DNA of 23,359 nucleotides. Origin: Phycisphaerae bacterium. GTDB taxonomy: Bacteria > Planctomycetota > Phycisphaerae > UBA1845. The notes beneath the pieces were generated by a model. That model did no database searches. It worked only from the letters and a program-made list of their open reading frames with translations, and was not told the DNA's origin. Below, piece by piece: positions 1 through 17,197 of this stretch; the first letter of the stretch is position 1; each line of letters starts with the position of its first letter. Location: contig JAZGDL010000356.1 of NCBI GenBank assembly GCA_036477795.1, positions 1-23,359 on the forward strand, read 5' to 3'. The position numbers and the translations under genes are program-made.

Positions 1-335
1 AAAAGCGCGCGGACCGAACAACTGTCGATCGCCGAAGTCGACCAGTCGATTTCGTCGGCGACCCCCAACTCGTCGAGCAACGCGTGCCAGATTTTTTGCC
101 ACACCCCCACTACCTGCCAGTCGCGCAAACGACGCCAACAGGTCATTCCGCTGCCACAACCCATCTCTTGCGGCAGGTATTCCTACGGCGTGCCGGTCTT
201 GAGCACGAACAAAATACCCGTCAGCGCCGCGCGGTCTGGAATACGCGGCCGTCCGCCTTCTGGTTTGGGCGGCTCCGGTGGAATGTGTGGTTTGATGCGT
301 TCCCATAATTCGTCCGTGAGTAGGGGCTTGGCCAT
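1..335 (-). pseudogene. IS5-family transposase (DUF4096/HTH_Tnp_4-type N-terminus), 5' portion; continues past the left edge; interrupted by an in-frame TAG at 183-185
   Basis: Minus-strand translation from ATG 333-335 (GGAGGA RBS 8 nt upstream) gives MAKPLLTDELWERIKPHIPPEPPKPEGGRPRIPDRAALTGILFVLKTGTP-stop-EYLPQEMGCGSGMTCWRRLRDWQVVGVWQKIWHALLDELG..., the hallmark N-terminus of IS4/IS5 transposases (consensus LTDEEW..IEPLLP..RGRPR.DR..LNAILYVLRTGCPWRDLP....W.TVYRRFRRW...GVWE.I). The TAG lies exactly where the conserved Trp (TGG) of the TGxPWRxLP motif is expected, and the same frame continues to nt 1. The right end of the IS lies near 405-420 (..ggttttgttagagtgcc), not precisely defined. Confidence 0.7.
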
Positions 336-435
336 AATCGTGTCCTCCATGACATTGCGCCACACTAGATATCGGCCAAGCCACAAACCCATCAATAGGT
401 TTTGTTAGAGTGCCTAAGCCGGTATCCTCGCAAAC

Positions 436-478
436 GTCCCCGGCAGGGCTCGAACCTGCAACCTCCGGCTCCGGAACA
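436..478 (-). repeat. Displaced copy of the tRNA-Arg 3' end (anticodon loop to discriminator), direct repeat of 2798-2840; att-like
   Basis: gtccccggcagggctcgaacctgcaacctCcggctccggaa at 436-476 matches 2798-2838 (gtccccggcagggctcgaacctgcaacctTcggctccggaa) with 1 mismatch. Upstream of the anticodon loop the sequence diverges (cactg vs gtcgg) and no D-arm or acceptor 5' strand is present, so it is not a functional tRNA. Confidence 0.75.
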
Positions 479-662: not shown

Positions 663-1805
663 ATGTGCGCTTCAATTGAAGAGATAATAAAGAACCACAC
701 GACGCATGAGAAGTCGCTGAAGGACGAGGAATCCAAGGAGGCGTACAACGAAGAGGAGGCTCGGATAGCCTTCGGTGACGAATTCATCGACGCACTGAAA
801 GAAGTCAATAACGAATTCTGCGGTGATTGGTGGCAACTTGCGCTACTCCGAGGGAATGAGGATCGGGATCGAAGGACTCAGACGCTACCTGCGACCCGGC
901 CATTAACGCCGTGGAGAAAATTCCGCGCGAAATGCAAGGAAGAGTACATTCACCTCGAAGGAGCGAACCTCACGTATGCCCACCTGGAAAAGGCAAATCT
1001 TGTGGAAGCCCACCTTGAGCACGCGGATCTGCGGTACGCCCATCTCGAGCACGCGGATCTCTCTCATGTCCGCCTCGGGTGCGCGGCTCTTAGCGAGTGC
1101 AATTTGGACGACACCGATGTACGCTTCGCTAAAGGCTTGCTCTTTGACGGCAACCGTGTCACTGGTATCCGAATCGAGGGAAATGCACCCGATCCGTGGT
1201 CCAAGCTGCGGCGCACGTACACGGGGCCGTGGTTTTTCGTTCACCTGCTACTGCTGGCGGTATTCTTTGCCCCTTATGTGGGCAAGGCGGTGTACCTCAG
1301 CGGCAAATCGCATTTTCAACAGTGGTCGTTCGAGCAGTACCAGACCCTGGGCGAACGGTTGCCGGAGGTGGCAGCGATCCAAGAGTATCAGGCCAAGCTC
1401 GAGAAGGAGTTTCACGAAACGCACGAAGAGCGATGGGCGGTACTGATCCTTCTAGGCCTGGACCAAGGCTTCTGGGCGGTAGGGATGGCGATGGTCGTGA
1501 TCTTCTACAATCTGGTCCGTGGGTTTCTGACCCTTCGGGTGAGCGCTTTGCGGGACGCCGAAGAACGGTCCTCGACGACACCGAATCTGTGGGAGTATTA
1601 CGGATACTCCCATCCGCTGAGCAAAAAGCGCATCGTACCGACGATGAGGAAGACCAACCCGCTGAGATGGCCCACCGAGTGCATAGGCCTGTATCGTCTG
1701 CATGTTGCCGCGCGCGTATTGATGCTGGTTGCATTTGCGGCGGTGCTGTACAACACGATTTATTGGGTGGCCAAGACGAAGGTGTGGGTGCCAATCGTGC
1801 TGTGA
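663..1805 (+). CDS. Pentapeptide-repeat protein with C-terminal membrane domain (about 3 TM helices); acidic low-complexity N-terminus
   Basis: 380-aa ORF. Residues ~95-155 are classic pentapeptide repeats (EGANLTYAHLEKANLVEAHLEHADLRYAHLEHADLSHVRLGCAALSECNLDDTDV), encoded by three tandem 30-nt units at 981-1070. Hydrophobic segments at aa ~188-207, 258-286 and 341-367. First ~240 nt are markedly lower in GC (~50%) than the surroundings. The start at 663 is the only in-frame ATG; no strong SD. Confidence 0.7.
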   Translation: MCASIEEIIKNHTTHEKSLKDEESKEAYNEEEARIAFGDEFIDALKEVNNEFCGDWWQLALLRGNEDRDRRTQTLPATRPLTPWRKFRAKCKEEYIHLEGANLTYAHLEKANLVEAHLEHADLRYAHLEHADLSHVRLGCAALSECNLDDTDVRFAKGLLFDGNRVTGIRIEGNAPDPWSKLRRTYTGPWFFVHLLLLAVFFAPYVGKAVYLSGKSHFQQWSFEQYQTLGERLPEVAAIQEYQAKLEKEFHETHEERWAVLILLGLDQGFWAVGMAMVVIFYNLVRGFLTLRVSALRDAEERSSTTPNLWEYYGYSHPLSKKRIVPTMRKTNPLRWPTECIGLYRLHVAARVLMLVAFAAVLYNTIYWVAKTKVWVPIVL

Positions 1806-1885
1806 TGCGCTGCGCGGGCGGTCGAGCCAGTGGTGTGCCGCGGTGATCAGCGGCTGTTTGAGATTGAGAATACGAGGTTCATGCA

Positions 1886-2602
1886 ATGAAGGTATTCATC
1901 AGTTGGTCTGGAGCGCGAAGCAAAATCGTGGCGTCGGCCCTGCGCGAGTGGCTGCCCAACGTGATACAGGCCGCAGAGCCCTGGATGTCGGACAGCGACA
2001 TTGAGGCCGGTTCGCGCTGGTTTTCTGAAATATCAGGTAAGCTGAACGAGCTGCATGTGGGGATCGTGTGCGTGGTACCCGAGAACAGCCGATCTGCATG
2101 GCTGAGTTTTGAAGCTGGAGCCTTGGCCAAGGCGATCGAAGAGTCGCGTGTGTGCCCCTATCTGCTCGATATGCAAAAAGCTGACCTGGCCGGCCCGTTA
2201 TCGCAATTCCAGGCGGTTTGTGCTGATCGCGGTGGAACCTTCGATTTGCTATCCATGATCAATGGCCGTGATGAGGCGCCGGCTATTAGAGACGACGTTT
2301 TGCAAAACTCGTTTGACAAACACTGGCCGGACCTTGAACACCGTTTGCAAGCGATTGGGGAAAGGCTGGCCGGCGAGCCGGAGCCTACCGAGCGCGACCA
2401 ACGTGATATGATCCAGGAAACCCTGGGGTTGGTTCGGCAGCTTGCGCGGCAACCGACCGTCGTCGGAAGACCAACGACCTGGTTGGAAGCTCTTGCGAGT
2501 TCCATGGCACCTCAGAAGGAATTCCCCCCCAATCCGGAGCTGAAAGCATGGATAGAGCGTATATCTTTGAAGCGCGCCGAGTCAGAAAACGATCCCGGTT
2601 AA
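1886..2602 (+). CDS. TIR-like domain protein (TIR_2/DUF1863-like fold) with ~110-aa helical C-terminal extension
   Basis: 238 aa. The N-terminal 85 aa MKVFISWSGARSKIVASALREWLPNVIQAAEPWMSDSDIEAGSRWFSEISGKLNELHVGIVCVVPENSRSAWLSFEAGAL follow the bacterial TIR pattern (FISYS.. start, W...I..AI helix, I.VLS....S.W...E), including the W-x-x-x-E motif (E76, codon 2111-2113) that supplies the catalytic Glu in NADase-active TIRs. GAGG 9 nt upstream of the ATG. GC ~57%, below the local average. Confidence 0.75.
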   Translation: MKVFISWSGARSKIVASALREWLPNVIQAAEPWMSDSDIEAGSRWFSEISGKLNELHVGIVCVVPENSRSAWLSFEAGALAKAIEESRVCPYLLDMQKADLAGPLSQFQAVCADRGGTFDLLSMINGRDEAPAIRDDVLQNSFDKHWPDLEHRLQAIGERLAGEPEPTERDQRDMIQETLGLVRQLARQPTVVGRPTTWLEALASSMAPQKEFPPNPELKAWIERISLKRAESENDPG

Positions 2603-2796
2603 CGGGCAGTATCGATCCGGGAGCTGTGCGGGTTTCCTGCTGACTCTCCTTGCCCTTGTGTGCCATCATGTGTCCCTATTCGTTACGCTGCGCACTTGGG
2701 GCAGCGGTCTTCCAGAACCGCATACCCCGCGGGCGGCTCCGCCGTCACCCACCTTCGCCCACGCCGAACCCTCCGACATTTCCCGCAGACGGTGGA

Positions 2797-2870
2797 CGTC
2801 CCCGGCAGGGCTCGAACCTGCAACCTTCGGCTCCGGAAACCGACGCGCTGTCCAGTTGCGCCACGGGGAC
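2797..2870 (-). tRNA. tRNA-Arg (anticodon CCG)
   Basis: Minus-strand 74 nt: gtccccg tg gcgc aactggaca gcgc g tcggt ttCCGga gccga aggtt gcagg ttcgagc cctgc cggggac g. Perfect 7-bp acceptor stem, 4-bp D stem, 5-bp anticodon stem (one G-U), 7-nt loop with U33 and anticodon CCG followed by G37, 5-bp T stem with a TTCGAGC loop. No encoded CCA. Confidence 0.9.
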
Positions 2871-2920
2871 ACGGAGAAACTGAATGTACCGCCCGCCAGT
2901 GCGCTGTCAACGTGGGACCG

Positions 2921-3040
2921 CTGACGATTGACGATTGGGGATTGACGATTGACGATTGCCCATTCCGGGGTCGCACATCTGCGCTTCCTCCGTCCCTTCG
3001 TCCCTTCCTCTCCCTTCGTGCCTCCGTGCCTTCGTTCGAC
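2921..3040. repeat. Composite intergenic repeat, copy A: heptamer tandem array (TGACGAT)2-TGGGGAT-(TGACGAT)2, a ~45-bp spacer (attccggggtcgcacatctgcgcttcc), then an octamer array (tccgtccc ttcgtccc ttcctctc ccttcgtg cctccgtg ccttcg)
   Basis: Read directly. Homologous to copy B at 4290-4412 in the same order and orientation (the spacers align: attccgGGgtcgcaCAtcTgcGcttccTCcgtcccttcg vs attccgCCgtcgcaGAgtTgcActtccGTcgtcccttcg). A short third copy of the octamer part lies at 17476-17500. Confidence 0.85.
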
Positions 3041-3131: not shown

Positions 3132-4295
3132 ATGACACCGTTGGAAGCCGACACTCCATCGTTTCGATTCAATCGGGCAGAGGCCGGTGGTGGGTTGGGA
3201 GACCTGGGCACGTTCGTTCCGCTGCTGGTGGGCATGGTGAGCCAGTGCGGCCTGCAGCTGGGGCCGGCCCTGTTCTGTGCAGGCCTGATGAACGTTACCA
3301 CCGGCCTGTTGTTCCGCATTCCCATGGCGGTTCAGCCGATGAAGGCCATCGCGGCGGTCGCCATCGCGGAGGGGCTGACGCAGTCGCAGATTCTGGCTGC
3401 CGGCATCCTCACCAGTGTGGTAGTACTGCTGGTGGCCGTCACCGGCCTGCTCGATCTGCTCTGCCGCGTTATCCCGCGCAGCGTCGTCCGCGGACTGCAG
3501 CTTGCCTTGGGTTTGAAGTTGCTGACGCGCGGCTTTGCCCTGATCGTGGGAACGGACGTCTGGATCGGTTGGGACAGCATCGGCCTGGGCGTGCTGTGCG
3601 CCGCGATGGTGCTGATGCTTTACTTCTCCACGCGGGTTCCCGGGGCCCTGGCGGTCTTTGCCGTGGGGTTGATTGCCCTGGTGGCCGGGGAGCCCTCGCT
3701 CCTGTCCGAAACCCGGCTGGGGATGACGTGGAACCTTCCGGACCTTGCCGATCTGGCGGATTGGCGCACGGGCCTGTTTCGTGGGGCGTTGCCGCAGATC
3801 CCGTTGACGCTGCTCAATTCGGTCATCGCAGTGTGCGCCCTGTCGTATGACCTCTTTCCTCGCCGGGCGGCGTCGCCGCGCAAGGTGGCGATCTCCGTAG
3901 CGTTGATGAACCTCCTGTGCTGTCCGTTGGGGGGGTTGCCGATGTGTCACGGCGCGGGGGGGCTGGCGGCGCAGTATCGCTTCGGGGCCCGGACGGGCGG
4001 CAGCGTGGTCATGCTGGGCGTCGCCAAGATGCTGCTGGCCCTATTGTTGGGCAGTTCCCTTCTGCTGTGGCTGGGCCATTATCCCGAATCGGGCCTCGGC
4101 GGCCTGCGGCTCTTCAGCGGGCTGGAACTGGCGATGATCTGCCGCGACCAGCGCACGCGGGTGGATTACTTCGTGATGCTGGTGACCGCGGGGGCGTGCA
4201 TGGCGGTGAACACCGCCGTCGGCTTTGTGGTGGGGTGGCTGATGGCTGCCCTGCTGCTGTGGGGCGTCTTTCGAATCGAGCCGGCAGGGGATTGA
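3132..4295 (+). CDS. MOT1-family transporter (molybdate transporter, sulfate-permease-like superfamily)
   Basis: 388 aa from ATG 3132 (GGAGA upstream). LGDLGTFVPLLVGMVSQCGLQLGPALFCAGLMNVTTGLLFRIPMAVQPMKAIAAVAIAEGLTQSQILAAGILTSVVVLLVAVTGLLDLLCRVIPRSVVRGLQLALGL closely follows the MOT1 signature (GDLGT[FY]IP..., TGLLF.IPMPVQPMK.IAAVA, IP..VVRG.QL..GL). About 10 predicted TM segments. The longer ORF start at 2949 would read through repeat A and is rejected. Stop TGA 4293-4295 lies inside the first heptamer of repeat B. Confidence 0.85.
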   Translation: MTPLEADTPSFRFNRAEAGGGLGDLGTFVPLLVGMVSQCGLQLGPALFCAGLMNVTTGLLFRIPMAVQPMKAIAAVAIAEGLTQSQILAAGILTSVVVLLVAVTGLLDLLCRVIPRSVVRGLQLALGLKLLTRGFALIVGTDVWIGWDSIGLGVLCAAMVLMLYFSTRVPGALAVFAVGLIALVAGEPSLLSETRLGMTWNLPDLADLADWRTGLFRGALPQIPLTLLNSVIAVCALSYDLFPRRAASPRKVAISVALMNLLCCPLGGLPMCHGAGGLAAQYRFGARTGGSVVMLGVAKMLLALLLGSSLLLWLGHYPESGLGGLRLFSGLELAMICRDQRTRVDYFVMLVTAGACMAVNTAVGFVVGWLMAALLLWGVFRIEPAGD

Positions 4296-4412
4296 CGATT
4301 GGTGATTGGTGATTGCGGATTGGGGATTGGGGACTGGGGATTCCGCCGTCGCAGAGTTGCACTTCCGTCGTCCCTTCGTGCCTTCGTGCCTCCGTGCCTT
4401 CTTCCCTTCGTG
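4290..4412. repeat. Composite intergenic repeat, copy B: GATTGNN heptamer array x8 (gattgac gattggt gattggt gattgcg gattggg gattggg gactggg gattcc), spacer, then ccttcgtg/cctccgtg octamer array
   Basis: Read directly. Same architecture and orientation as copy A. Sits between the convergent 3' ends of the MOT1-like gene (stop 4295) and galE (stop 4419). Confidence 0.85.
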
Positions 4413-4418
4413 TCTTCC

Positions 4419-5405: not shown

Positions 5406-5536
5406 ACTTGAATCATACCGCCAATTCTGGTGCAATATACGCCGGTTTTCAATTGATCGGGGGTGTTCCCACAGCGAAGCAGGCGAGCTTATCGGAATCA
5501 ACGCACTCTAACAAGACAAGACGGGTGTTCCGTGCG

Positions 5537-5558
5537 TATAAATAGTCACACGCGTGTG
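5537..5558 (+). promoter_or_regulatory. -10-like TATAAAT (5537-5543) followed by a perfect 12-bp palindrome CACACGCGTGTG (5547-5558), 34 nt upstream of the 5592 start codon; candidate promoter and operator
   Basis: Seen in the sequence. Lies in the divergent galE / Cys-rich-protein intergenic region. No convincing -35. Confidence 0.3.
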
Positions 5559-5591
5559 GACAGAGGAAGTGATGCGAAGGAGGGAGCGTAC

Positions 5592-7331
5592 ATGAAGACA
5601 ACGGCGCTGGCAGCGACAACGGCGATACTTGCAATCATGGTGGCCGCAGCATCGGCTGAGAGCCTCTCGGCCGTGTGGATGTTGAGCTCCTCGGGCTCAG
5701 GTAGGCCGGCGGCAGCCGGCACCGACTGCTGCGTGGAGCACGGCACGGCCGGGTGCGACGACCCGGCCATTGAAGAGTGCGTCTGCGCCATCGACCCGGT
5801 TTGCTGCATCGAGGTGTGGGACAACTTGTGTGTCATATTCGTAGAGGCGGGAGGTTGCGGCGATTGCGGCGGCGGCGGCCCTAGGTGCTGTACTCCGCGC
5901 ACGGCGCCCGGGTGCCCCGAGGATCTCACCATTCAAGGTTGCGTCTGTGACCGGGACCCGTTCTGCTGCAACACGGAATGGGACCAAACCTGCGTCGATG
6001 AGGTCGAGGAATTCGGCTGCGGTTTCTGTGACGGTATTCCCAACGATGCCTGCCCGGACGCGGTTGCCGTCAACTCCGACACTACCCTTGCGATCAACAC
6101 CGACGCGGCGACGACCGACGGGCCTGCGCTTCCGGCCGCCTGCGATGAGGGGGGCGGCTTGGCGTTCGATTCGGACGTATGGTATTGCTACTCGCCGGAC
6201 TGCGACGGCGACGTGACGGTGAGCTTGTGCGGTGAGTCTTTCGACAACCGCCTGGCTATCTACGAGGGGTGCGCATGTCCGGCCACCAACACCCGGATGA
6301 TCGAGTGCAGCGACAACTTCTGCGGTTTCCAGGCGCAGATCACCTTCAACGCTTCGTCGCAAATGAACTACCTGATACGCGTCGGCGGTAACGGCGCTGT
6401 TGGAACGGGAGAATTGCAGATCACCGGCGGCGACACCGACAACAACTTCGATTGCAACGATAACGGCACTTTCGACGGGTGCGACATTCGTTCGGGTGAC
6501 AGTGGCGACTGCAACAGCAACGGCATCCCCGACGAGTGCGAGCTGGACGACGGCCGGGTCCTCATCCAGCAACTACCCAACCAGAGCAACGGTCTGTTCT
6601 CCGATCCGGACTGCGGTGTATGCGAGGCCGCCGGTCAGCAGAGCGTGGCTGATCAGTTCCGCATTTTTGAGACGACAACCATTGAAAGGGTGGTCCTGTG
6701 GGGCGGGTATTTCCCCGACAACATCCCCTCGCTAGACGATGATTTCACCGTGATCTTACAGCGGAGCTGCGCCGGCCTGCCCTGCCTGCCGTTCACCCCG
6801 CAGTCCGGCGTTCCATCAACGCGAATCAGGACCGGCGTTCAATTGTTCGGCGTGGATGAATGGCTCTTCGAGCTGACGCTTCCAACGCCGCTGACCCTCG
6901 ATTCGGGGATCTACTACATCGAGGTATTCAACAACACCGCCGGCAACACCGACAGCTTCTTCTGGGAGGTGGGCAACCGGGACGCCGCCGCCGGAGCGAA
7001 TGGTAACGCCGTGGATGCCAACGCCTCCCCCGGCGTCGAGTGGTTCGCCAACCCGGAAGATCAGGCGTTTCAGTTGCTGGGCCCGCCCTTAAATGATTGC
7101 GACAACAACCGGATTCCCGATGTGTGTCAGAAAGAGCCCGTTCAAGTGCCGGGCGACCTGAACGACGACTGCCAGGTGGACATCGACGATTACGAACTGT
7201 TCCTAGATTGCGTTACGGGCCCCGGCGGCGGTCCCGTTGCCGAAGATTGCCAGGCTGTTGACTTCGACGAAGACGACGACGTTGACCTGCCCGATTGGGG
7301 TGGTTTTCAGGATGTATTCGGGAGCCCGTAA
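5592..7331 (+). CDS. Secreted cysteine-rich protein: duplicated N-terminal Cys module, PPC-like (pre-peptidase C-terminal type) jelly-roll domain, DCNxNGIPDxCE-type acidic Cys motifs, C-terminal dockerin-like Ca-binding repeat pair
   Basis: Start ATG 5592 with GAAGGAGGGAG RBS; signal peptide MKTTALAATTAILAIMVAAASAES. Two copies of C(C)...GC.[DE]..I..CVC..DP.CC...WD..CV..VE..GCG.C. The segment DSDVWYCYSPDCDGDVTVSLCGESFDNRLAIYEGC...MNYLIRVGGNGAVGTGELQI fits the PPC pattern (D.D.Y.F...G.V.I.L....D.DL.LYD.....YYIRV.G...G.Y.L.V). C-terminus DLNDDCQVDIDDYELF ... DFDEDDDVDLPDWGGFQDVF is dockerin-like (D.N.D..V...D...F). Confidence 0.75.
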   Translation: MKTTALAATTAILAIMVAAASAESLSAVWMLSSSGSGRPAAAGTDCCVEHGTAGCDDPAIEECVCAIDPVCCIEVWDNLCVIFVEAGGCGDCGGGGPRCCTPRTAPGCPEDLTIQGCVCDRDPFCCNTEWDQTCVDEVEEFGCGFCDGIPNDACPDAVAVNSDTTLAINTDAATTDGPALPAACDEGGGLAFDSDVWYCYSPDCDGDVTVSLCGESFDNRLAIYEGCACPATNTRMIECSDNFCGFQAQITFNASSQMNYLIRVGGNGAVGTGELQITGGDTDNNFDCNDNGTFDGCDIRSGDSGDCNSNGIPDECELDDGRVLIQQLPNQSNGLFSDPDCGVCEAAGQQSVADQFRIFETTTIERVVLWGGYFPDNIPSLDDDFTVILQRSCAGLPCLPFTPQSGVPSTRIRTGVQLFGVDEWLFELTLPTPLTLDSGIYYIEVFNNTAGNTDSFFWEVGNRDAAAGANGNAVDANASPGVEWFANPEDQAFQLLGPPLNDCDNNRIPDVCQKEPVQVPGDLNDDCQVDIDDYELFLDCVTGPGGGPVAEDCQAVDFDEDDDVDLPDWGGFQDVFGSP

Positions 7332-7846: not shown

Positions 7847-10800
7847 CTACGGACACGTCGGCCCCGTCCATGTGTCACCCCCGCCCGCGGCGGTGGCACC
7901 GAAACATTGGAAGATGTCGGCGAAGAACGTGACCTGCTGGTCCGGCACGGTGGGCCAGTTGCCCTGCGTGTCAACCTCGATCCCAGGATCAGGCCCCGTA
8001 AAGTTGGGGAATCCCGCGGCGGCAGTGTTACTGAACTGCTTGAACAAGTCGGCAAAGAACGTGGTCTGCCCGTCCTTGCTGGAGTCGCACCACACCCACG
8101 TCGGAAGGTCAGGCCGCACCGAAGCCGCGTCCGGGCCGGCGCAGTCGATGCAGCGCGCCGTCACCGTCGGTCTCGAGATAGGCCCAATGGGGTCGCAGCT
8201 TTCATCACCGATACCCTGGCAAGCGGCCGCATCCTTGTGATCGCATAAGCTCCCGTCGTCGCACACATAACCCCACGCGAAACTGGGACACACCGGCCTG
8301 CCGGTGACATACAGGGCGTTGAGACCGCCGCTGGTCCACTGATCCGGCGTCAGGAAGTCGGCCGTCGCACAGGTGGGCTCCGACGCAATGCCGATGTTGA
8401 CCAAAACAGTTCCAGCCGGGTCGTCAGGGTAGTTCGTCCGGACCAACTTCACCCAGCCCTCGTTCGACACAGGGTCGCAGCTTTGATCGCCGATGCCCTG
8501 GCAGGCGTTCGGGTCGGCCGGATCGCACTTCGATCTGTCGTCACACTCATTTCTGGTGCCGCACACGATGTGAAACGCCACTGGATCGGTAACGCTGGCA
8601 TCTGGTCGGATCTCGATGTACCGCGAGGCGATGTTGCTGATCACGACCGGCTCAAGACACGGCGGCTCGCAAACATCGGCGATCCCGTTCGCCGGGTTGA
8701 CGTCATTGCAATTCGTGCCGTTGCCATGGAACGTCGAGCCGGAGAGATTCTCGCAGCACGCTCTGTTCATCACGTCACAGCTCAGGCCGGTGATGCCGAA
8801 ACAGCAGGCACCGACTTCGGTGCTGCACACGCTGCTCGGTCCCAGCGGCGTGGACCCCTTGGCAAGACAGCAGGCGCGATCGATCTCGGTGCAGGTGCCG
8901 TCAGCATGGCAACAGGCTTCTATTCCCAAGCAGAGACTGCCGGCACCCTGGAACGCGCCGACACACTCCGCCTCCGTTGCGATGGTACAGTTGGCGTCGG
9001 CGTCGCAGCAGGCGCCGGGCCGGTCGTCACAGCAACGCCCATTGCTTGCGCTTATGCTACCCGCGAGGTTCAGCCCGGTGACCACACCCCAGATGTTCTC
9101 GACCACCACAGTGACGCAGTTTCGCCCGACCACAAACAGGTTGGGGTCGGTGGCTTTGACGTGCGTCGGTGCTGCGGTGTTGAACGACGGCGCCGGCGTC
9201 GAGCCGATCGACACACCGTTCAGGAACACTTCGGCGGCGTCGTCGGCACGCAGGTCGATGAGCAGCCGGGGGTCGCGGAAGCGCTTGTCCAGACAGAAGC
9301 AGAACTCGTAGCAGTAGTCGCCGTTGGGGCCGGTGGTGTTGGCGCTGATCCAACGGGTACCGGCGATGGTCAGCCACATAGGATTGGGGGTGATCACCAG
9401 CGCCGGCCGCGGCAGCGTGCCTTGCGGCGAGGGCTCGCAGGTCACCTCCCAGGTATCGTCGGGATCACCGATGGGAATCAAGCCGCCGGTATCGTCGTCG
9501 ACACCGGTGCCGATGTTGATGGTCAACTTCTCCGGCGGACAGCAGTTGCAGCAGATATCAACACCGCCTTGGGGGTTGTCTACGACGGTCCGTTCGCAGG
9601 CCGTACCGTCGGCACAGGTGCCGACGCAATCCGGCATTGCCGGAGGCGGCGTCGACAAGTCCACATGACACTCGTCGGTTCCAAGGCAATCGCAATCGAT
9701 GACGGTGACGTCCCCGGTGAGCAAATCGAAGTTCACGCACTTGGGTTGACAGATTTCTACGACGGGCGTGACCGGGCAAGTGATCGGCTCACAACCCTGG
9801 CCGTCTTGCGTCGGCTCGCATATGGGATCGCAGGCATCGTCGATGCCGTTGCCGTTGTTGTCACCTTCACAGGCGGACCCGACGCCCAGGAAGCTGCTAC
9901 CGGTCAAATCCGCGCAGCAGGTCTCGTCCATCTCCGCGCAGCGCTCGTTTACGCCGTCGTTGAAGCAGCAGGCCCCGACCTGCCCGCAAACGGTGCCGGC
10001 GCCGTGGAAGGTGCCGCTCCGCAGGACGCAATCAGCGAGGCTCATGACCGCGCAGGTCTCCCGGATGCCGTCCAAATCGGTATCATAGCAACACGCTCCG
10101 ACATCTATGGGCGCACAATCGCAGGTCATATCCCCGCCCTGCGGATAATCTAACGAATCGATGCTGGTATTGCCCGTCGGGCTCCCGTCGATGTGGACCT
10201 GGCAAACTTCACCCGCAACCGGGCAATCGCCGTCGCAGGACAGAATCGACCCGCTGATTTTGATGTCACCGCAACAGTCCGGCTCACAACAATTACACTC
10301 GGTCGGCTTGAAATCCCCGCCGATAAAGATCGTGACCACACTCGGCAGGCAGGTCTCAAGCAATGTGGGATCGTCGGTCAGACAGTCGCGCTTGTGCATG
10401 TTCACGCACAACGGTACCGGCGGCGCCGGCGGCAGCGGGCAGAACTCGTCGCACGTGTCGTCGATGCCGTTGCCGTTGCCGTCACCCAGACACGGCACCC
10501 CAGCGCCCTGGAAGACGCCGTTAATGTCATCACAGCAGGTCTCGTCCATGACCTCGCAGCGCTCGTTGACGCCGTCCGGGGGGGTGTCGTCGTCGAAGCA
10601 GCACGCCCCCACCTGGCCACAGCTCGTACCGGCGCCGTGGAACGTGCCGAACAGGGCGTCGCACTCGGCCTGTGTCATCTCCGCGCAGCTTTCCTTGATC
10701 CCGTCACCGTCTGCGTCGAAGCAGCAGGCCCCATCCGGGGGAAGCGTGACGCAATCGCAAGTCGCCTTGCCGGGTGGAAGACTGAACACGCTCGCGGTCG

Positions 10801-12721
10801 AAACGCCCTGCGACACGCCATTGACGAAGATGACGCAGGGGCCCTGCGGATTCGGCTCCGGACACCCGCCGAGACACGATATCTCACCGATGGCGATGTT
10901 GATCTGGATAGGCCCACACTTCTCCGTAAAGCAATCGCACGCGAGCACGTTGATCCCGGCCGCACCGATCTCAACCGAGCTAGGCCAGCACGTTGCGTTG
11001 GGATCGTCGCTGATGCAATCCGTAGCCTGCAGAGTGGCGCAGGGATCGTCCGCCGGCGGACCCGGCAGGTCACACATCTTCTCACAGTCGCAGCAAACCT
11101 CTGTGACGCCGCCAACGGTGGTCACGGTCTCAACACAAACCTCATCGGCGGCGCAATTACCTACGCACCTCGGCTGAAGAGGCGGATCGAAAGGACTGGG
11201 CTCGGGGTGACAATCGGTCGGAGTTCTACACTCACAGTCCACGACAGTGACCGCCGGTGTGGCGCTGGGATCAAATCTCAGGCAACGCGGAATACAATCT
11301 TCGCCCGGGACGGGGCATTGGAAGGTCTTGCAGTCGGACAGGTCGTCCAGCGGTTCACACACCGCCGGCTCCGGCTCGCAAGCGCAGCAGATGCGCTGTA
11401 TACCCGCGCCGATGTCGGTCACCGTGCGGACGCAGATTTCGTCAGGCGGGCAGAACCCGATGCACGATGGTTCGGCCGCGGCTGACACGTTGACATAGCA
11501 CTGGTCCGAACCGACACATTCACACAACGAAGCGGTCACTGTACCCGAATTTAGATCAACATCTACACAACGTCTTCTGCACTTTTCGGTGTCGATGGGG
11601 CACACCACGGTTGTGCATTGGTCGGTACCCGGAATCGGCTGACATTCCGCCGGCTCGCAGGCGTCGTCTATGAAATTGCCGTCGTTGTCACCCAGACAGA
11701 CCGTGCCGGACCCCAGCGGCGTGCCGCCCAACTCGTTCTCGCAGCACAGCGGGTCCACTTCATCGCAAAGGATCTCGCCCAAGGCACCGGGATAACAGCA
11801 CGCCTCGATCGCCCCGCCGCACGTTGAAGCCGCCGGCTGCACGCTGCCGCCTTTTGCCTCACAGCAGATGGGGTCCATGTCGTCGCAGGTGCCGTCCGGC
11901 AGGCAGCAGGGTTGATCACCGGTACAGACGCTTCCGTCACCACCGTAGACGCCGCCTTGAGCCTGGCACTCCTGTGCCGTAAGCGGTTCGATGCATACAT
12001 TGGGTGGCCCCAACCGGCAGCAGGCACCGGTCGGCTCAACCGGGTCGCACGGAGGGCATGTCCAATCCAACCCGCCTTGTGGATTCTGCGTCCCAACCGC
12101 GTCAGGACAGAATATCCCCGTAGGGCACTTCTCGATGCACATGACCGAACCACCCTGTACCACAGGCCGACACGCGCCGGGCTCGGGTACTTCGCAGTCG
12201 CACTCCGACACCGCAAAATCACCCGCCGACGTTTGATGAATCACCTTAGGAACACAGGCTTCCGACGGATCGTTGGGGCAGGGGCCCTTGCATTTGAGGC
12301 TGCACGTTCCCGCAAGACAAGGGTTGCACTCCGACGTTAGCTGGCATTGGCCGGGGTTCCCGCTGTCCAGACATTCGCACGCATACGAGATCGTGCCGTC
12401 GAGATTGCCCTTGCCGAGCAGCGTGCACGTAAGTGCCGGGTCGGTACACGGCTGGCTACAGAAGATCGTCCCCAAGTTCGGATTGTAGTCTACGTGGCAC
12501 ACCGGCTTGGCGCAGTCGCAGCACTCGATGCGAATGAAATTACCCGACGAATCCGCCAGAATCTCGACCGGCACACAACCTTGGGTGGCCACCGCACAGG
12601 TACCGGCGCAGCTCGTGCCCGCCGGATTGGTCGAGCACGGGGCAGCAGCCTCACTGCACACCGGCAAGATCATGATACTACAAAACGCCATCAGTCCGAT
12701 GGGGGCAATCAGCGTCTTCAT
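7847..12721 (-). CDS. Giant (1624 aa) secreted, modular, extremely cysteine-rich repeat protein
   Basis: ATG at 12719-12721 with AAGGAG 7 nt upstream; signal peptide MKTLIAPIGLMAFCSIMILPVCSEA. Two alternating module types: (1) 'ACC' modules (aa ~233-357, 665-760, 875-966, 1236-1352), e.g. ACCFDADGDGIKESCAEMTQAECDALFGTFHGAGTSCGQVGACCFDDD..GVNERCEVMDETCCDDINGVFQGAGVPCLGDGNGNGIDDTCD; (2) 'CxC...TV...CCxCE' modules x3 (aa ~381-449, 476-547, 993-1062), e.g. CRRRCVDVDLNSGTVTASLCECVGSDQCYV...CIGFCPPDEICVRTV...ICCACE. Also a Cys-poor beta-rich region (aa ~1090-1230), a duplicated CQGIGD[QE]SCDP motif and a duplicated TTFFAD[LI]F[KQ][QC]F C-terminal motif. Confidence 0.85.
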   Translation of the reverse strand: MKTLIAPIGLMAFCSIMILPVCSEAAAPCSTNPAGTSCAGTCAVATQGCVPVEILADSSGNFIRIECCDCAKPVCHVDYNPNLGTIFCSQPCTDPALTCTLLGKGNLDGTISYACECLDSGNPGQCQLTSECNPCLAGTCSLKCKGPCPNDPSEACVPKVIHQTSAGDFAVSECDCEVPEPGACRPVVQGGSVMCIEKCPTGIFCPDAVGTQNPQGGLDWTCPPCDPVEPTGACCRLGPPNVCIEPLTAQECQAQGGVYGGDGSVCTGDQPCCLPDGTCDDMDPICCEAKGGSVQPAASTCGGAIEACCYPGALGEILCDEVDPLCCENELGGTPLGSGTVCLGDNDGNFIDDACEPAECQPIPGTDQCTTVVCPIDTEKCRRRCVDVDLNSGTVTASLCECVGSDQCYVNVSAAAEPSCIGFCPPDEICVRTVTDIGAGIQRICCACEPEPAVCEPLDDLSDCKTFQCPVPGEDCIPRCLRFDPSATPAVTVVDCECRTPTDCHPEPSPFDPPLQPRCVGNCAADEVCVETVTTVGGVTEVCCDCEKMCDLPGPPADDPCATLQATDCISDDPNATCWPSSVEIGAAGINVLACDCFTEKCGPIQINIAIGEISCLGGCPEPNPQGPCVIFVNGVSQGVSTASVFSLPPGKATCDCVTLPPDGACCFDADGDGIKESCAEMTQAECDALFGTFHGAGTSCGQVGACCFDDDTPPDGVNERCEVMDETCCDDINGVFQGAGVPCLGDGNGNGIDDTCDEFCPLPPAPPVPLCVNMHKRDCLTDDPTLLETCLPSVVTIFIGGDFKPTECNCCEPDCCGDIKISGSILSCDGDCPVAGEVCQVHIDGSPTGNTSIDSLDYPQGGDMTCDCAPIDVGACCYDTDLDGIRETCAVMSLADCVLRSGTFHGAGTVCGQVGACCFNDGVNERCAEMDETCCADLTGSSFLGVGSACEGDNNGNGIDDACDPICEPTQDGQGCEPITCPVTPVVEICQPKCVNFDLLTGDVTVIDCDCLGTDECHVDLSTPPPAMPDCVGTCADGTACERTVVDNPQGGVDICCNCCPPEKLTINIGTGVDDDTGGLIPIGDPDDTWEVTCEPSPQGTLPRPALVITPNPMWLTIAGTRWISANTTGPNGDYCYEFCFCLDKRFRDPRLLIDLRADDAAEVFLNGVSIGSTPAPSFNTAAPTHVKATDPNLFVVGRNCVTVVVENIWGVVTGLNLAGSISASNGRCCDDRPGACCDADANCTIATEAECVGAFQGAGSLCLGIEACCHADGTCTEIDRACCLAKGSTPLGPSSVCSTEVGACCFGITGLSCDVMNRACCENLSGSTFHGNGTNCNDVNPANGIADVCEPPCLEPVVISNIASRYIEIRPDASVTDPVAFHIVCGTRNECDDRSKCDPADPNACQGIGDQSCDPVSNEGWVKLVRTNYPDDPAGTVLVNIGIASEPTCATADFLTPDQWTSGGLNALYVTGRPVCPSFAWGYVCDDGSLCDHKDAAACQGIGDESCDPIGPISRPTVTARCIDCAGPDAASVRPDLPTWVWCDSSKDGQTTFFADLFKQFSNTAAAGFPNFTGPDPGIEVDTQGNWPTVPDQQVTFFADIFQCFGATAAGGGDTWTGPTCP

Positions 12722-13227: not shown

Positions 13228-13803
13228 ATGGCTTCCGAAGAGGTCACTCAGGTCCTGGCCGATCTGACACGTGGTGATACGGGGTCCGCCGCGCGCCTGT
13301 TGCCCCTGGTGTATGAGGAGCTCAGGCGGCTGGCCGACCAGTACCTGCGCGACGAACGCCCTGATCACACGCTCCAGGGAACGGCCCTGGTTCACGAGGC
13401 CTTTCTCCGTCTTGTGGATCAGAAGGACGCCAAGTGGCAGAACCGGGCGCACTTCTACCGCGTGGCCGCCATGGCGATGCGGCGCATCCTGGTCAACCAC
13501 GCCCGCGATCGGCAGCGCATCAAACGTGGCGGAGGAAGACGCAAGTTCTCGCTCGACGACATAGACACGCAAGCCGAGGCGCAGTCGCCGGACCTTATCG
13601 CCCTGGATGAAGCACTGACCAAGCTCAGTTTGCTGGACCACCGCAAAGCGCAACTCGTTGAACTCCGCTACTTCGCCGGGTTTACGATCGAAGAATCGGC
13701 CCGGATCCTGGAGATCTCGCCGGCCCAACTGAAGCGCGAGTGGACGCTCGCCAAGACTTGGCTGCTGCGCGAACTTCGCCGTGGAGGTGAGTGTGAACGC
13801 TGA
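13228..13803 (+). CDS. ECF-type RNA polymerase sigma factor of the TIGR02999-like (kinase-associated) group
   Basis: MASEEVTQVLADLTRGDTGSAARLLPLVYEELRRLADQYLRDERPDHTLQGTALVHEAFLRL... with sigma70 region 2 and region 4 (LVELRYFAGFTIEESARILEISPAQLKREW) and the characteristic ..LAKTWLLRELRRG C-terminal tail. Alternative start ATG 13213; neither has a good SD. Confidence 0.85.
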   Translation: MASEEVTQVLADLTRGDTGSAARLLPLVYEELRRLADQYLRDERPDHTLQGTALVHEAFLRLVDQKDAKWQNRAHFYRVAAMAMRRILVNHARDRQRIKRGGGRRKFSLDDIDTQAEAQSPDLIALDEALTKLSLLDHRKAQLVELRYFAGFTIEESARILEISPAQLKREWTLAKTWLLRELRRGGECER

Positions 13804-16800
13804 GCGGTGGCAAAGAGTCGGGGAAGTCTTCGATTCGGCCGTAACGCGGGATGCGGCCGAGCGGGCGGCATTTCTTGCAGATGCCTGCGGTGGCGATTCG
13901 GACTTACGCCGAGAGGTGGAATCACTTCTCGCCCACCGGGCCGACGCGGAGCCGTTTCTCGAAACGCCGCCCCTGAGCGACGTGCGACGGCTACTGGATC
14001 AGAATGGCCCGGGCGCCCTAGTAGGAGAGCGCGTCGGCGCCTACCGGATCGTAGAGATGATCGCGTCCGGCGGGATGGGCACCGTGTATCTGGCCGCGCG
14101 GGCGGACGACCAGTACCGCAAGCAGGTAGCCATCAAGATCGTAAGGACCGGGGATCGAACACCGGAACTTGTCGAACGTTTTCGTATCGAGCGGCAGACG
14201 CTTGCCGGTCTGGAACACGCCAACATCGCCAGGCTGATTGACGGCGGAATCACCGAGGAAAACCGACCGTACTACGTCATGGAGTTCGTTGAAGGGCGAC
14301 CGATCGACCAATACTGCGAGGTTGCCAAGGACGGCGGTCTGTCAACCAGGGAACGACTCGAGCTGTTCTGCACAGTTTGTGAGGCCGTCGGCTATGCCCA
14401 TCAGAACCTGGTGATTCATCGCGACCTCAAACCCAGCAACATCCTGGTTACGAACGACGGTATTCCGAAGCTTGTGGACTTCGGCCTGGCCAAGACGCTT
14501 GGCAACACGCTCGGCGACGCAGACGGTCCGACCGTGCAGGGAGAATTCATAGGCACCGTGGCGTATGCCGCCCCGGAGCAGGTGAAAGGGGATGTCGGGA
14601 GTGTAGACACACGCACGGACGTCTACGCACTCGGAGTGGTGCTGTTCCGGCTGCTTACGGGGCGTTCGCCCTATCCTTCGGGCGGTTCCCTCTCGGACGT
14701 GCTCCACCATATCCTGGAGACGGCCCCGAATCCGCCTTCGACGTATTATCGACATGGTGATGATGAACTCGATGCGATCGTTCTCAAAGCGTTGTCCAAG
14801 GAGAAGGAGCGTCGCTACCAATCCGCCGCGGCACTTAAGGAGGATATCCATCGCTACCTGGCGGGTGATCCCGTCCTTGCCAAGGGCGAGTCCTCATGGA
14901 ACTGGTACGTCGTCAAGAAAACCGCACGGCGGCACCGCCTGCCGCTTGCCATCTCGGCGGCGTTTGTGGTCCTTGTTTCCGCGTTTGCGGTTGTGATGAC
15001 GATTCAGGCCGGGCGCGTGGCGAATCAGCGCGACATCGCCGAAAAGGCGCTCAGAAGCAACAAGATCGAACGCGGTCGGGCGATGGGGCTGGCCGGGAAC
15101 ATGACGCATGCCGAGCGCTTGATCTGGCGCGAGTACCTCGCCGGTGCCGGCGTGACCGGATCCCCGACGTCCGGTCCGATTGGCGCGGGTTTGAGTTTGG
15201 ACGAAGCCCACTGGGCGCTCTGGGAGCTCTATGCCCATCACCCGTGTGTCCTGACGACCACGGACCCGTACAACAGCCGCATCTCTGCGGTCGCGTTGAG
15301 TCCCGATGGAACATCCCTGGCGTCGAGCGGTAGCGGCGGGGTCATCACATGGTTTGATTTTCCTTCGGGCCGGCAGCGCCCGGGATTCACCACCACCGGT
15401 CTGCACTCCGATGAGCCTGGGAAGATCGTCACCAACGACAGCTTCTACCCAAGAATCTCATTCAGCCCCGATGGGCGGTTCATCGGTGTCGGAACTCAAG
15501 AACGAACGGTGGAGTTGTGGAACGTCGAGACGGGTCGCCGGGCGGTGGTGCTCGGCGCAAGCGAGGCCAGTGTCGAACCCACAGCGTACACATCAGGCGA
15601 ACGTGCGGTGTTCCAGTCGATCGTCTTTTTCCCGGACGGTCGCACCATCGCCACGTCTAGCGGCGAGAACGTCATTCGGATTTGGGACGTGGCATCGAAA
15701 ACGTGTACGCGCGTCTTGGAAGGACATGGCAATCACGTCAGAAGACTGGCGATCAGCCCCGATGGCCGCACACTGTTATCCGCGTCCGCTGATGGTCTTG
15801 TCATGCTGTGGGATGTCTCGACGGGCCGTCGCGTCGGTATGCTCCAAGGCCCGGGGCAATTTATAAACTGCGTTCGCTTCAGTCCGGATGGTCGGCACTT
15901 TGCCGCGGTGGGCAACGATCTCACCGTCTTTCTGTGGGAGACTACGCCGCCGCACGGTCGCCGATTGCTGACCGGCCACACCGCCTGGGTCCGGGCCGTC
16001 GCATTCCATCCCCGCGCACCGCTGCTGGCCACGGGCAGCGGTGACAATACCGTGATCCTGTGGGACATTCCCACCGGGCGGGTGATCCGAAGGCTCGCCG
16101 GGCACGCCCGTGAAGTCGTCGCGTTGTGCTTTGCCCCCGACGGCCGATATCTCGTCTCCGCCGATTGGGATTCGATCAAGGTCTGGGATGTGAACGAGCG
16201 TAGGCACTTTCGCAAACTGGTCGGGGTCACGGGTCCGGTTTTTTCCGCCGTATTTTATCCGGGCGGCCGGAGGGTCGCTTTCTGCAGATCCGACGAAGAC
16301 CGCTCCGTTCGTATCTGCGACCGATTCACGGGCGAGATCCTACACATTCTCAAAGGACACACCGCTCCCGTGTCGTCCGTCGCGGTGAGCCCGGACGGCA
16401 CCGTGCTCGCGTCGGCAAGCTACGATCACACGGTGAGGTTGTGGGATGCGGTGACCGGTTCCTGCAAGAAAGTTCTTACCGGGCATCAGGGCGGGATCAA
16501 CGCGGTGTGTTTCCGCGACGACGGGCGCGCGATCGCTTCCGGCAGTGACGACGGAACCATTCGTTTATGGGAAGTGCCGTCCGGACGGCACCTGGCGACG
16601 CTCGAGCAACACAGCCAGCGGATCCCGTCGGTTCGCTTCAGCCCCGTCGATCAGACACTGGCCGCCTCAACCGGGAGGGATGGCGAGATCGTTTTGTGGG
16701 ATACCGCGACACGCCGTATCCGCCGGCGGTGGAAGGCGCACGACATCGGCGTGCGCCCGGTTCGGTTCTCGCATGACGGGAGGATCCTGGCATCGGGTGG

Positions 16801-17197
16801 CGACGACAATCAGATCAGGCTGTGGGACCCGGCCTCGGGCTCATGCGTCGGCACCCTGGCGGGACACGATCAGCATATTTTCGGTTTGGATTTTGCGCGC
16901 GGAGATCACATTCTCGCTTCAAGCAGTCGCGGCAATACGATCAAGCTTTGGGACATCGCCGAACATCGATGTCTGGTTACACTGGAAGGCCACAACGACA
17001 TGGTGTTCTCCGTCCAGTTCAGCCGGGATGGACGGGAGCTGGTGTCGGCCAGTCGGGACGGAATCGTCGGTCTCTGGGACCTGGGTTACTACGATCGTCA
17101 CATCGCTGGCAATCTGGCGTTTCAGCGGACCAGACTCTCAGGAGATCCTAATGGGAGAATCGTCAAAACCCGCAAGACTGGCCGCCGCTTGCCCTAA
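13793..17197 (+). CDS. Ser/Thr protein kinase with a conserved N-terminal extension, one TM helix and a C-terminal WD40 beta-propeller array
   Basis: GTG 13793 with GGAGGTG 6 nt upstream, overlapping the sigma gene stop (13801-13803) by 11 nt. The N-terminal ERWQRVGEVFDSA...AERAAFLADACGGDSDLRREVESLL is typical of kinases partnered with this sigma group. Kinase motifs GGMGTVY, VAIK, HRDLKPSNIL, DFGLAK, APE. TM segment LPLAISAAFVVLVSAFAVVMTI, then >10 WD-type repeats (..SGSDDGTIRLWD.. etc.). Confidence 0.9.
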   Translation: MNAERWQRVGEVFDSAVTRDAAERAAFLADACGGDSDLRREVESLLAHRADAEPFLETPPLSDVRRLLDQNGPGALVGERVGAYRIVEMIASGGMGTVYLAARADDQYRKQVAIKIVRTGDRTPELVERFRIERQTLAGLEHANIARLIDGGITEENRPYYVMEFVEGRPIDQYCEVAKDGGLSTRERLELFCTVCEAVGYAHQNLVIHRDLKPSNILVTNDGIPKLVDFGLAKTLGNTLGDADGPTVQGEFIGTVAYAAPEQVKGDVGSVDTRTDVYALGVVLFRLLTGRSPYPSGGSLSDVLHHILETAPNPPSTYYRHGDDELDAIVLKALSKEKERRYQSAAALKEDIHRYLAGDPVLAKGESSWNWYVVKKTARRHRLPLAISAAFVVLVSAFAVVMTIQAGRVANQRDIAEKALRSNKIERGRAMGLAGNMTHAERLIWREYLAGAGVTGSPTSGPIGAGLSLDEAHWALWELYAHHPCVLTTTDPYNSRISAVALSPDGTSLASSGSGGVITWFDFPSGRQRPGFTTTGLHSDEPGKIVTNDSFYPRISFSPDGRFIGVGTQERTVELWNVETGRRAVVLGASEASVEPTAYTSGERAVFQSIVFFPDGRTIATSSGENVIRIWDVASKTCTRVLEGHGNHVRRLAISPDGRTLLSASADGLVMLWDVSTGRRVGMLQGPGQFINCVRFSPDGRHFAAVGNDLTVFLWETTPPHGRRLLTGHTAWVRAVAFHPRAPLLATGSGDNTVILWDIPTGRVIRRLAGHAREVVALCFAPDGRYLVSADWDSIKVWDVNERRHFRKLVGVTGPVFSAVFYPGGRRVAFCRSDEDRSVRICDRFTGEILHILKGHTAPVSSVAVSPDGTVLASASYDHTVRLWDAVTGSCKKVLTGHQGGINAVCFRDDGRAIASGSDDGTIRLWEVPSGRHLATLEQHSQRIPSVRFSPVDQTLAASTGRDGEIVLWDTATRRIRRRWKAHDIGVRPVRFSHDGRILASGGDDNQIRLWDPASGSCVGTLAGHDQHIFGLDFARGDHILASSSRGNTIKLWDIAEHRCLVTLEGHNDMVFSVQFSRDGRELVSASRDGIVGLWDLGYYDRHIAGNLAFQRTRLSGDPNGRIVKTRKTGRRLP

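Follow-up and report, generated by a model that had tools for sequence, protein, structure and literature searches.

The stretch of DNA analysed here (the window, 23,359 nucleotides (nt) in length) belongs to contig JAZGDL010000356.1 of a metagenome-assembled Phycisphaerae genome (assembly GCA_036477795.1). Within it, a 2.3-kb segment bounded by two tRNA-derived direct repeats (434-476 and 2796-2838, identical at 42 of 43 nt) contains only two genes, one for a pentapeptide-repeat membrane protein of 380 amino acids (aa) and one for a 238-aa protein with a Toll/interleukin-1 receptor (TIR) domain. A first-pass annotation, made from the sequence alone, had proposed that the two form a novel two-gene defence or signalling module. 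The coordinates of both open reading frames (ORFs), their common strand and the 80-nt gap between them were confirmed (Table 1). We consider it fairly probable that the TIR protein is a solo defence-type enzyme, and that the membrane protein is an unrelated companion carried on the same integrase-less islet at tRNA-Arg.

Table 1. Features of the islet and its borders (positions are those of the window).
Feature	Position	Strand	Remarks
IS4/IS5-family (insertion sequence) transposase, N-terminal fragment	183..395	-	Pfam DUF4096, E 1e-12; abuts left repeat of islet
Left attachment site (att)-like direct repeat, a copy of the tRNA-Arg 3' half	434..476	.	43 nt, 98% identical to 2796-2838
Pentapeptide-repeat membrane protein gene, 380 aa	663..1805	+	N-domain aa 1-95, beta-helix aa 96-175, membrane domain aa 178-380
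Pentapeptide beta-helix coding region (aa 96-175)	948..1187	+	PF00805; 15-nt periodicity 1008-1061; beta-strand ladder in model
Intergenic spacer, 80 nt, between membrane-protein and TIR genes	1806..1885	+	
TIR protein gene, 238 aa	1886..2602	+	Pfam TIR_2, PADLOC TIR-TM, phrog_13899, AlphaFold2 and Foldseek
E76 codon, GAA, catalytic-type Glu of W72-x-x-x-E76	2111..2113	+	Invariant in homologue alignments
tRNA-Arg(CCG), with its 3' half (2796-2838) as right att-like repeat	2793..2871	-	ARAGORN; Rfam tRNA, 62 bits

The GC content of the membrane-protein gene and the TIR gene (0.560 and 0.566) and their GC content at third codon positions (GC3; 0.685 and 0.628) fall below those of the seven long flanking genes, which range from 0.606 to 0.655 for GC and from 0.718 to 0.811 for GC3; the att repeats and low GC described in the first pass were therefore borne out. 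The spacer between the two genes was scanned for promoter-like and terminator-like sites and none was found, and the same scan of the islet, together with a search against Rfam, returned nothing besides the tRNA. Co-transcription of the two genes is possible. The surroundings of the TIR gene consist of the pentapeptide membrane protein, the tRNA, an MFS_MOT1 gene and an epimerase gene, and both islet proteins are 100% identical to NCBI entries that lie on one and the same contig. No integrase was found between the repeats, within the 6.9 kb of contig that lie left of the window, or within the approximately 12.6 kb inside the window that are covered by L101, a gene-called and Pfam-listed stretch of 19.5 kb of the source contig that starts at the contig end. 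The best reading of the islet is the remnant of an element of low GC that integrated at tRNA-Arg(CCG) and now has no integrase.

The 238-aa protein matched the Pfam family TIR_2 (PF13676), its score of 29.5 bits (E 1.2e-6) lying just above the gathering cutoff of 28. An AlphaFold2 model built from an alignment with 43 homologues reached a predicted local distance difference test (pLDDT) score of 86.6. When this model was compared with the PDB using Foldseek, the 43 top-ranked matches were all TIR domains (best E 1e-5), including those of SPARTA TIR-APAZ, plant NLR TIRs, SpbK, SARM1, PdTIR, BtpA, MyD88 and BtTir. A reassignment of the protein to a non-TIR, flavodoxin-like fold is excluded because the top 43 matches are all TIR. 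The protein opens with a TIR core (aa 1 to approximately 130); the extension that follows (aa 136-188) is helical and conserved, and the C-terminal tail (aa 189-238) varies within the family. W72 and E76 were invariant across 36 and 43 aligned homologues in two alignments, and all 19 invariant positions of the family, these two included, are kept. In a profile search of PDB sequences, the motif 'pW-l-l-F-E' aligned to the 'W-T-x-Y-E' of BtTir/AbTIR-type NADases, which cleave nicotinamide adenine dinucleotide (NAD+), with a marginal E of 0.05-0.14. The 238-aa protein is a true TIR protein with a catalytic-type Glu, as had been read from its W-x-x-x-E motif, and by analogy with characterised TIR enzymes it may possess NADase or signal-producing activity.

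These observations bear on whether the islet is instead in decay, with the TIR protein an inactive or functionless relic of a prophage or integrative element that has broken down, and no defence-related role for either gene in this organism. The missing integrase fits such a history, as do the 190 bp of non-coding sequence beside the tRNA, the transposase fragment that abuts the left repeat, and a C-terminal tail of only some 50 aa, where the viral relatives of the TIR protein have a median length of 275 aa. Decay of this kind is nevertheless quite improbable in our view: both ORFs are intact, 19 of 19 invariant TIR positions are retained, both proteins gave folded models (pLDDT approximately 86), and other members of the TIR family are equally short (225-243 aa).

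The relatives of the TIR protein were then used to place it among known defence genes. PADLOC returned a single strong match, to the TIR-TM model (PDLC03016; E 6.5e-62, 208 bits), which pairs aa 1-185 with profile positions 1-190 out of 293 and leaves the last 100 or so positions unmatched; the protein also matched phrog_13899 with an E of 1.4e-64. Homologues formed 1807 clusters at E<=1e-3. The best 120 of these were approximately 45-54% identical from aa 1 up to about aa 185 and then parted into unrelated tails. Some tails contained DUF3553, sigma70_r4, LuxR/XRE helix-turn-helix, HNH or DUF4241 domains, zinc ribbons or a second TIR-like domain, and others had no recognisable domain; transmembrane (TM) helices were predicted in none of the 120. 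In IMG/VR, members of the family were present on at least 148 viral contigs. Where the neighbours were annotated, they comprised endolysin, holin, repressor, DUF932, restriction-type domains and reverse transcriptase, and the TIR gene stood as a single gene. A tblastn search of phage genomes with the 238-aa protein found only two phages (four records), P2_AC1 and the lambdoid phage mEp390.

No neighbour family was shared among 79 metagenome loci around TIR homologues, except between near-duplicate contigs, and none recurred among 80 viral TIR loci. Neither the metagenome nor the viral loci contained a 2TM or 1TM gene of the type found next to the TIR gene of P2_AC1. Close co-directional neighbours with TM helices were present upstream in 6 of 77 cases and downstream in 2 of 75, and the background fraction of TM proteins is 14%. 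Since annotated contexts show single genes and neither shared nor AC1-type neighbours were found, the usual state of the family is a solo gene whose product has an enzymatic head that stays constant and a tail that varies, and the three-gene layout of AC1 is the exception. The family is widespread, largely prophage-borne and associated with defence, which upholds the link to defence first drawn for the TIR gene. These features suggest that its members are single-gene systems whose tails serve as sensors or adaptors.

The conserved W-x-x-x-E Glu, and a weak match of another family member (P0067) to the PADLOC ThsB model (2.8e-05), would also accord with a Thoeris-like role, in which the TIR protein is a ThsB-type signal producer and the gene for its effector lies at another place in the genome. 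Against this, the 238-aa protein itself gave no ThsB match at E<=1, and no SIR2/SLOG or Macro-TM gene was found in the 19.5 kb of L101 or beside the TIR relatives examined. Thoeris genes are normally adjacent, and a distant effector is to our mind highly improbable. Assignment of the locus to Thoeris, CBASS or Pycsar was rejected, as PADLOC gave TIR-TM alone.

The product of the upstream gene matched the Pfam Pentapeptide family (PF00805) with an E of 7.3e-25. Residues 96-175 form 16 five-residue units with a net charge of -6 and 7 His; the first 50 aa have a net charge of -8, and three hydrophobic helices lie at approximately 190-212, 262-285 and 345-370, in agreement with the acidic N-terminus and three TM helices first annotated. 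The pentapeptide array was likewise present as claimed; its count of about 12 repeats has to be raised to 16, and its description as three tandem 30-nt units is no more than an approximation: Tandem Repeats Finder gave a 15-nt period in approximately 3 copies at 1008-1061. An AlphaFold2 model (37 homologues, pLDDT 85.8) has three parts, a well-defined helical N-domain, a beta-helix and a helical membrane domain, so that membership of PF00805 is backed by both the repeat match and the quadrilateral beta-helix fold. It had been suggested that the repeats act as a DNA mimic of the Qnr/MfpA type. The idea found no support in the NCBIfam scores (14.4-16.5 bits against cutoffs of 240-450 for the Qnr and MfpA models) or in the repeat number, 16 repeats making only about 4 coils, and was set aside; nor did the scores point to gyrase protection.

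The family of the membrane protein comprises approximately 100 clusters, mostly from Phycisphaerae and other Planctomycetota, and its full-length homologues share 30-53% identity. Two motifs are strongly conserved, GNAPDPWSxLRRxYTGPWFF around the first membrane helix and YNxxRxxLTLRVSxLRDAEERS after the second. The membrane domain has no Pfam family, no PDB sequence relative and no selectivity filter. When it was searched alone (profile A4), it was found only behind pentapeptide repeats or by itself, and never fused to a TIR or other defence domain. The family was absent from IMG/VR viral contigs. In PADLOC the 380-aa protein gave no match at E<=1, the 1TM-TIR and 2TM-TIR models included, so that of the pair only the TIR gene is recognised there. 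The neighbourhoods of the family are heterogeneous, and a Pfam search of ten adjacent genes returned nothing defence-like. In one uncultured bacterium, three paralogues of the protein lie in tandem (L016, 178-3657).

A sister protein, P0202, begins with the same acidic N-module (NE..AR..FGD.F...GDWWQLA) and pentapeptide repeats, but where the novel membrane domain would stand it carries a K+ channel pore (Ion_trans_2, E 8e-12, TTLGFGD filter). Because the sister has a K+ channel pore in this place, the 380-aa protein is probably a regulated channel or membrane-signalling protein with a cytosolic beta-helix. A faint resemblance to HalA (9nyi) has no sequence support. The protein represents a small, uncharacterised family with a fixed architecture and a novel three-helix membrane domain, and nothing found here ties it to defence.

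Conservation of the pair was examined from both sides. A scan of 185,579 species genomes (one genome per species) with the profile of the membrane-protein family gave 18 loci, and a TIR gene was found in none of the 18, either by tblastn with the TIR protein of the window or with a hidden Markov model of 120 family members. Nor was one present on the four contigs of the closest membrane-protein homologues, two of which end too soon past the gene to be informative. All-against-all clustering of the proteins encoded in the 18 loci showed no shared neighbours other than Ser/Thr kinases. These adjoin the pentapeptide membrane gene in 2 of the 18 loci (L002, 3-2363; L007, 2551-4908), and in the window one lies at 13781-17197, 12 kb away; as Ser/Thr kinases are common in Planctomycetota, the proximity is probably due to chance. 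From the other side, neither a pentapeptide protein of this kind nor even its repeats were found in 80 metagenome and 80 viral loci of TIR homologues (E<=1e-3), and six further TIR contigs, checked through their Pfam listings and including the three closest relatives, held no pentapeptide protein and no common neighbour.

The pairing of the pentapeptide membrane protein with the TIR protein is thus so far unique to the source contig. Because it was never found elsewhere, the locus looks like two cargo genes of an islet and not like a new two-gene system, and the module proposed in the first-pass annotation is not supported by gene neighbourhoods. A search of the literature found no paper linking pentapeptide repeats with TIR defence. 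One protein, P0225 (386 aa), does combine pentapeptide repeats (approximately 35) with TIR_2 (5.6e-14) at its C-terminus. It was rejected as a Rosetta-stone fusion for the pair, since its TIR belongs to a different family and it has no membrane domain.

We therefore favour, as the fairly probable account given at the outset, a TIR enzyme that works by itself in abortive infection or superinfection exclusion. Its helical extension and tail would pick up a phage cue, upon which the TIR domains would self-associate and build a composite active site around E76. There, NAD+ would be cleaved or turned into a signalling nucleotide, and the infected cell would cease to grow. We model this sequence, from a trigger sensed by the extension and tail, through self-association, to the breakdown of NAD+ or the making of a signal, on what is known of bacterial and plant TIRs (SARM1, AbTIR, ThsB and SPARTA). 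The upstream gene would encode an unrelated, lineage-typical membrane protein travelling on the same small remnant, and the two genes would be adjacent because both are cargo of the 2.3-kb low-GC segment at tRNA-Arg(CCG). A defence function in the source organism and the independence of the two proteins are what we infer from these comparisons.

Several points weigh against this account. Both genes point the same way, no terminator is predicted in the 80 nt that separate them, they are the sole genes of the islet and they share the same deviation in GC and GC3, which together give the look of a co-acquired operon. We know of no solo member of the TIR family that has been shown experimentally to defend. 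Signal-producing TIRs can swap non-homologous effector partners, and because of this a lack of conserved neighbours is no proof of independence. Gene calls in the fetched loci were crude (longest ORFs, chosen greedily), and many of the contigs were short. Finally, the sole validated member of the family defends within a locus that includes upstream membrane-protein genes (PMC9122126).

The same arrangement would be expected if the pair were a working two-gene defence system, a variant of the design in which a TIR protein is joined to a membrane effector. The TIR protein would make an NAD+-derived signal or bind its partner, the beta-helix would be the cytosolic receiver, and the membrane would be opened or disrupted and the infection aborted. 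Such a system would be in keeping with the P2_AC1 locus, where two membrane-protein genes stand upstream of a homologous TIR gene and the three give defence as one locus, with the K+ channel pore of P0202, and with the existence of the P0225 fusion. We nevertheless hold a working pair to be rather unlikely, given that none of the 22 membrane-protein loci contained a TIR gene and none of the 160 and 6 TIR loci a pentapeptide protein. The membrane protein also lacks a PADLOC model, its family is missing from viral contigs and keeps no company with defence genes, the TIR of P0225 comes from another family, and the HalA match has no backing from sequence. Distinctly unlikely, in our estimate, is the specific form in which the NAD+-derived product of the TIR protein, or the TIR protein itself, gates a channel-like membrane protein through the cytosolic pentapeptide beta-helix.

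On present evidence, the locus adds a member from Planctomycetota to a defence TIR family and changes little, because that family is already in the catalogues of defence systems. It does draw attention to a very large, mostly prophage-borne TIR family that is almost never accompanied by the AC1 membrane partners, which makes one ask if AC1 needs its membrane genes at all, and to what the tails respond. The other gene of the islet brings to light a small, uncharacterised family of pentapeptide membrane proteins whose membrane domain has no known relative. Should the two proteins cooperate after all, a further class of membrane effector would be added to those that TIR enzymes can control. Gating through the beta-helix, if true, would provide the first pentapeptide-repeat domain that acts as the receiver of an immune effector, and would be a hint of a new family of pores in the membrane domain, which would fit the K+ channel sister and the faint likeness to HalA.

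Some further features of the window were recorded. The deposited gene call over the transposase fragment at 183-395 is a plus-strand ORF of 271 aa (L101, 6444-7259) without a Pfam match, and is probably spurious. On either side of the MFS_MOT1 gene (molybdate transporter-like), at 2922-3035 and 4287-4417, lie arrays of heptamers (GATTGAC/GATTGGG-like) followed by octamers (CCTTCGTC/CCTTCGTG-like); the arrays form an 82-nt direct repeat, 76% identical, with copies 1378 nt apart. Two large ORFs, 7847-12721 (minus strand, 1624 aa) and 5463-7331 (plus strand, 622 aa), had no Pfam match at E<=1e-4.

The locus was compared with known systems. In type II Thoeris, a TIR protein acts with a membrane effector. 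The islet resembles Thoeris in having a bacterial TIR with a catalytic-type Glu, and differs from it in that the neighbouring gene encodes a pentapeptide protein and not a Macro or SLOG protein. For the membrane protein, the closest structures of the beta-helix are small cyanobacterial pentapeptide proteins (Alr5209, Np275 and Rfr23 were compared). Unlike these, and unlike Qnr and MfpA, the 380-aa protein is membrane-anchored, has an extra N-terminal helical domain and forms approximately 4 coils. It shares with K+ channel proteins of the P0202 type an acidic N-module and pentapeptide repeats ahead of a membrane domain, but this domain has neither the selectivity filter nor the Pfam assignment of P0202 (Ion_trans_2), nor a relative in the PDB.

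Among phage proteins, mEp390_047 of phage mEp390 (phrog_13899) is 40% identical to the TIR protein of the window over aa 1-189 (E 8e-41), and likewise combines the TIR module with an unrelated tail. It sits alone in a variable spot between the Q and holin genes. The tails of the two proteins differ in sequence, and the gene of the window lies on a tRNA islet and not in a recognisable prophage.

The match in P2_AC1 is the product of gene P2AC1_00002, which has two small membrane-protein genes immediately upstream on the same strand. The AC1 TIR is homologous to that of the window over aa 1-184 (37% identity, E 4e-36), with the same invariant W-x-x-x-E, and both loci have membrane-protein genes or a membrane-protein gene upstream of the TIR gene on the same strand. 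The AC1 proteins match the PADLOC models 2TM-TIR, 1TM-TIR and TIR-TM with E of 7e-58, 3e-75 and 3e-118, respectively, the TIR reaching 393 bits over positions 1-286 of the TIR-TM profile; the system is presumably the one that DefenseFinder names Rst_2TM_1TM_TIR. In the islet neither the 2TM-TIR nor the 1TM-TIR component was found, and there is no other small TM gene. The upstream protein of the window is unrelated to the AC1 membrane proteins (126 aa and 185 aa), there is one partner gene instead of two, the host belongs to Planctomycetota and not to the Enterobacteria, and the layout is not conserved elsewhere. Cloned from this P2-like phage, the three AC1 genes (2TM, 1TM and TIR) gave E. coli C protection from lambda, LF82_P8 and P2 (Rousset et al. 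2022, PMC9122126). Since that locus has been validated, membrane-protein genes ahead of a TIR gene are no longer a new arrangement, and any novelty of the membrane partner is confined to its pentapeptide-repeat part.

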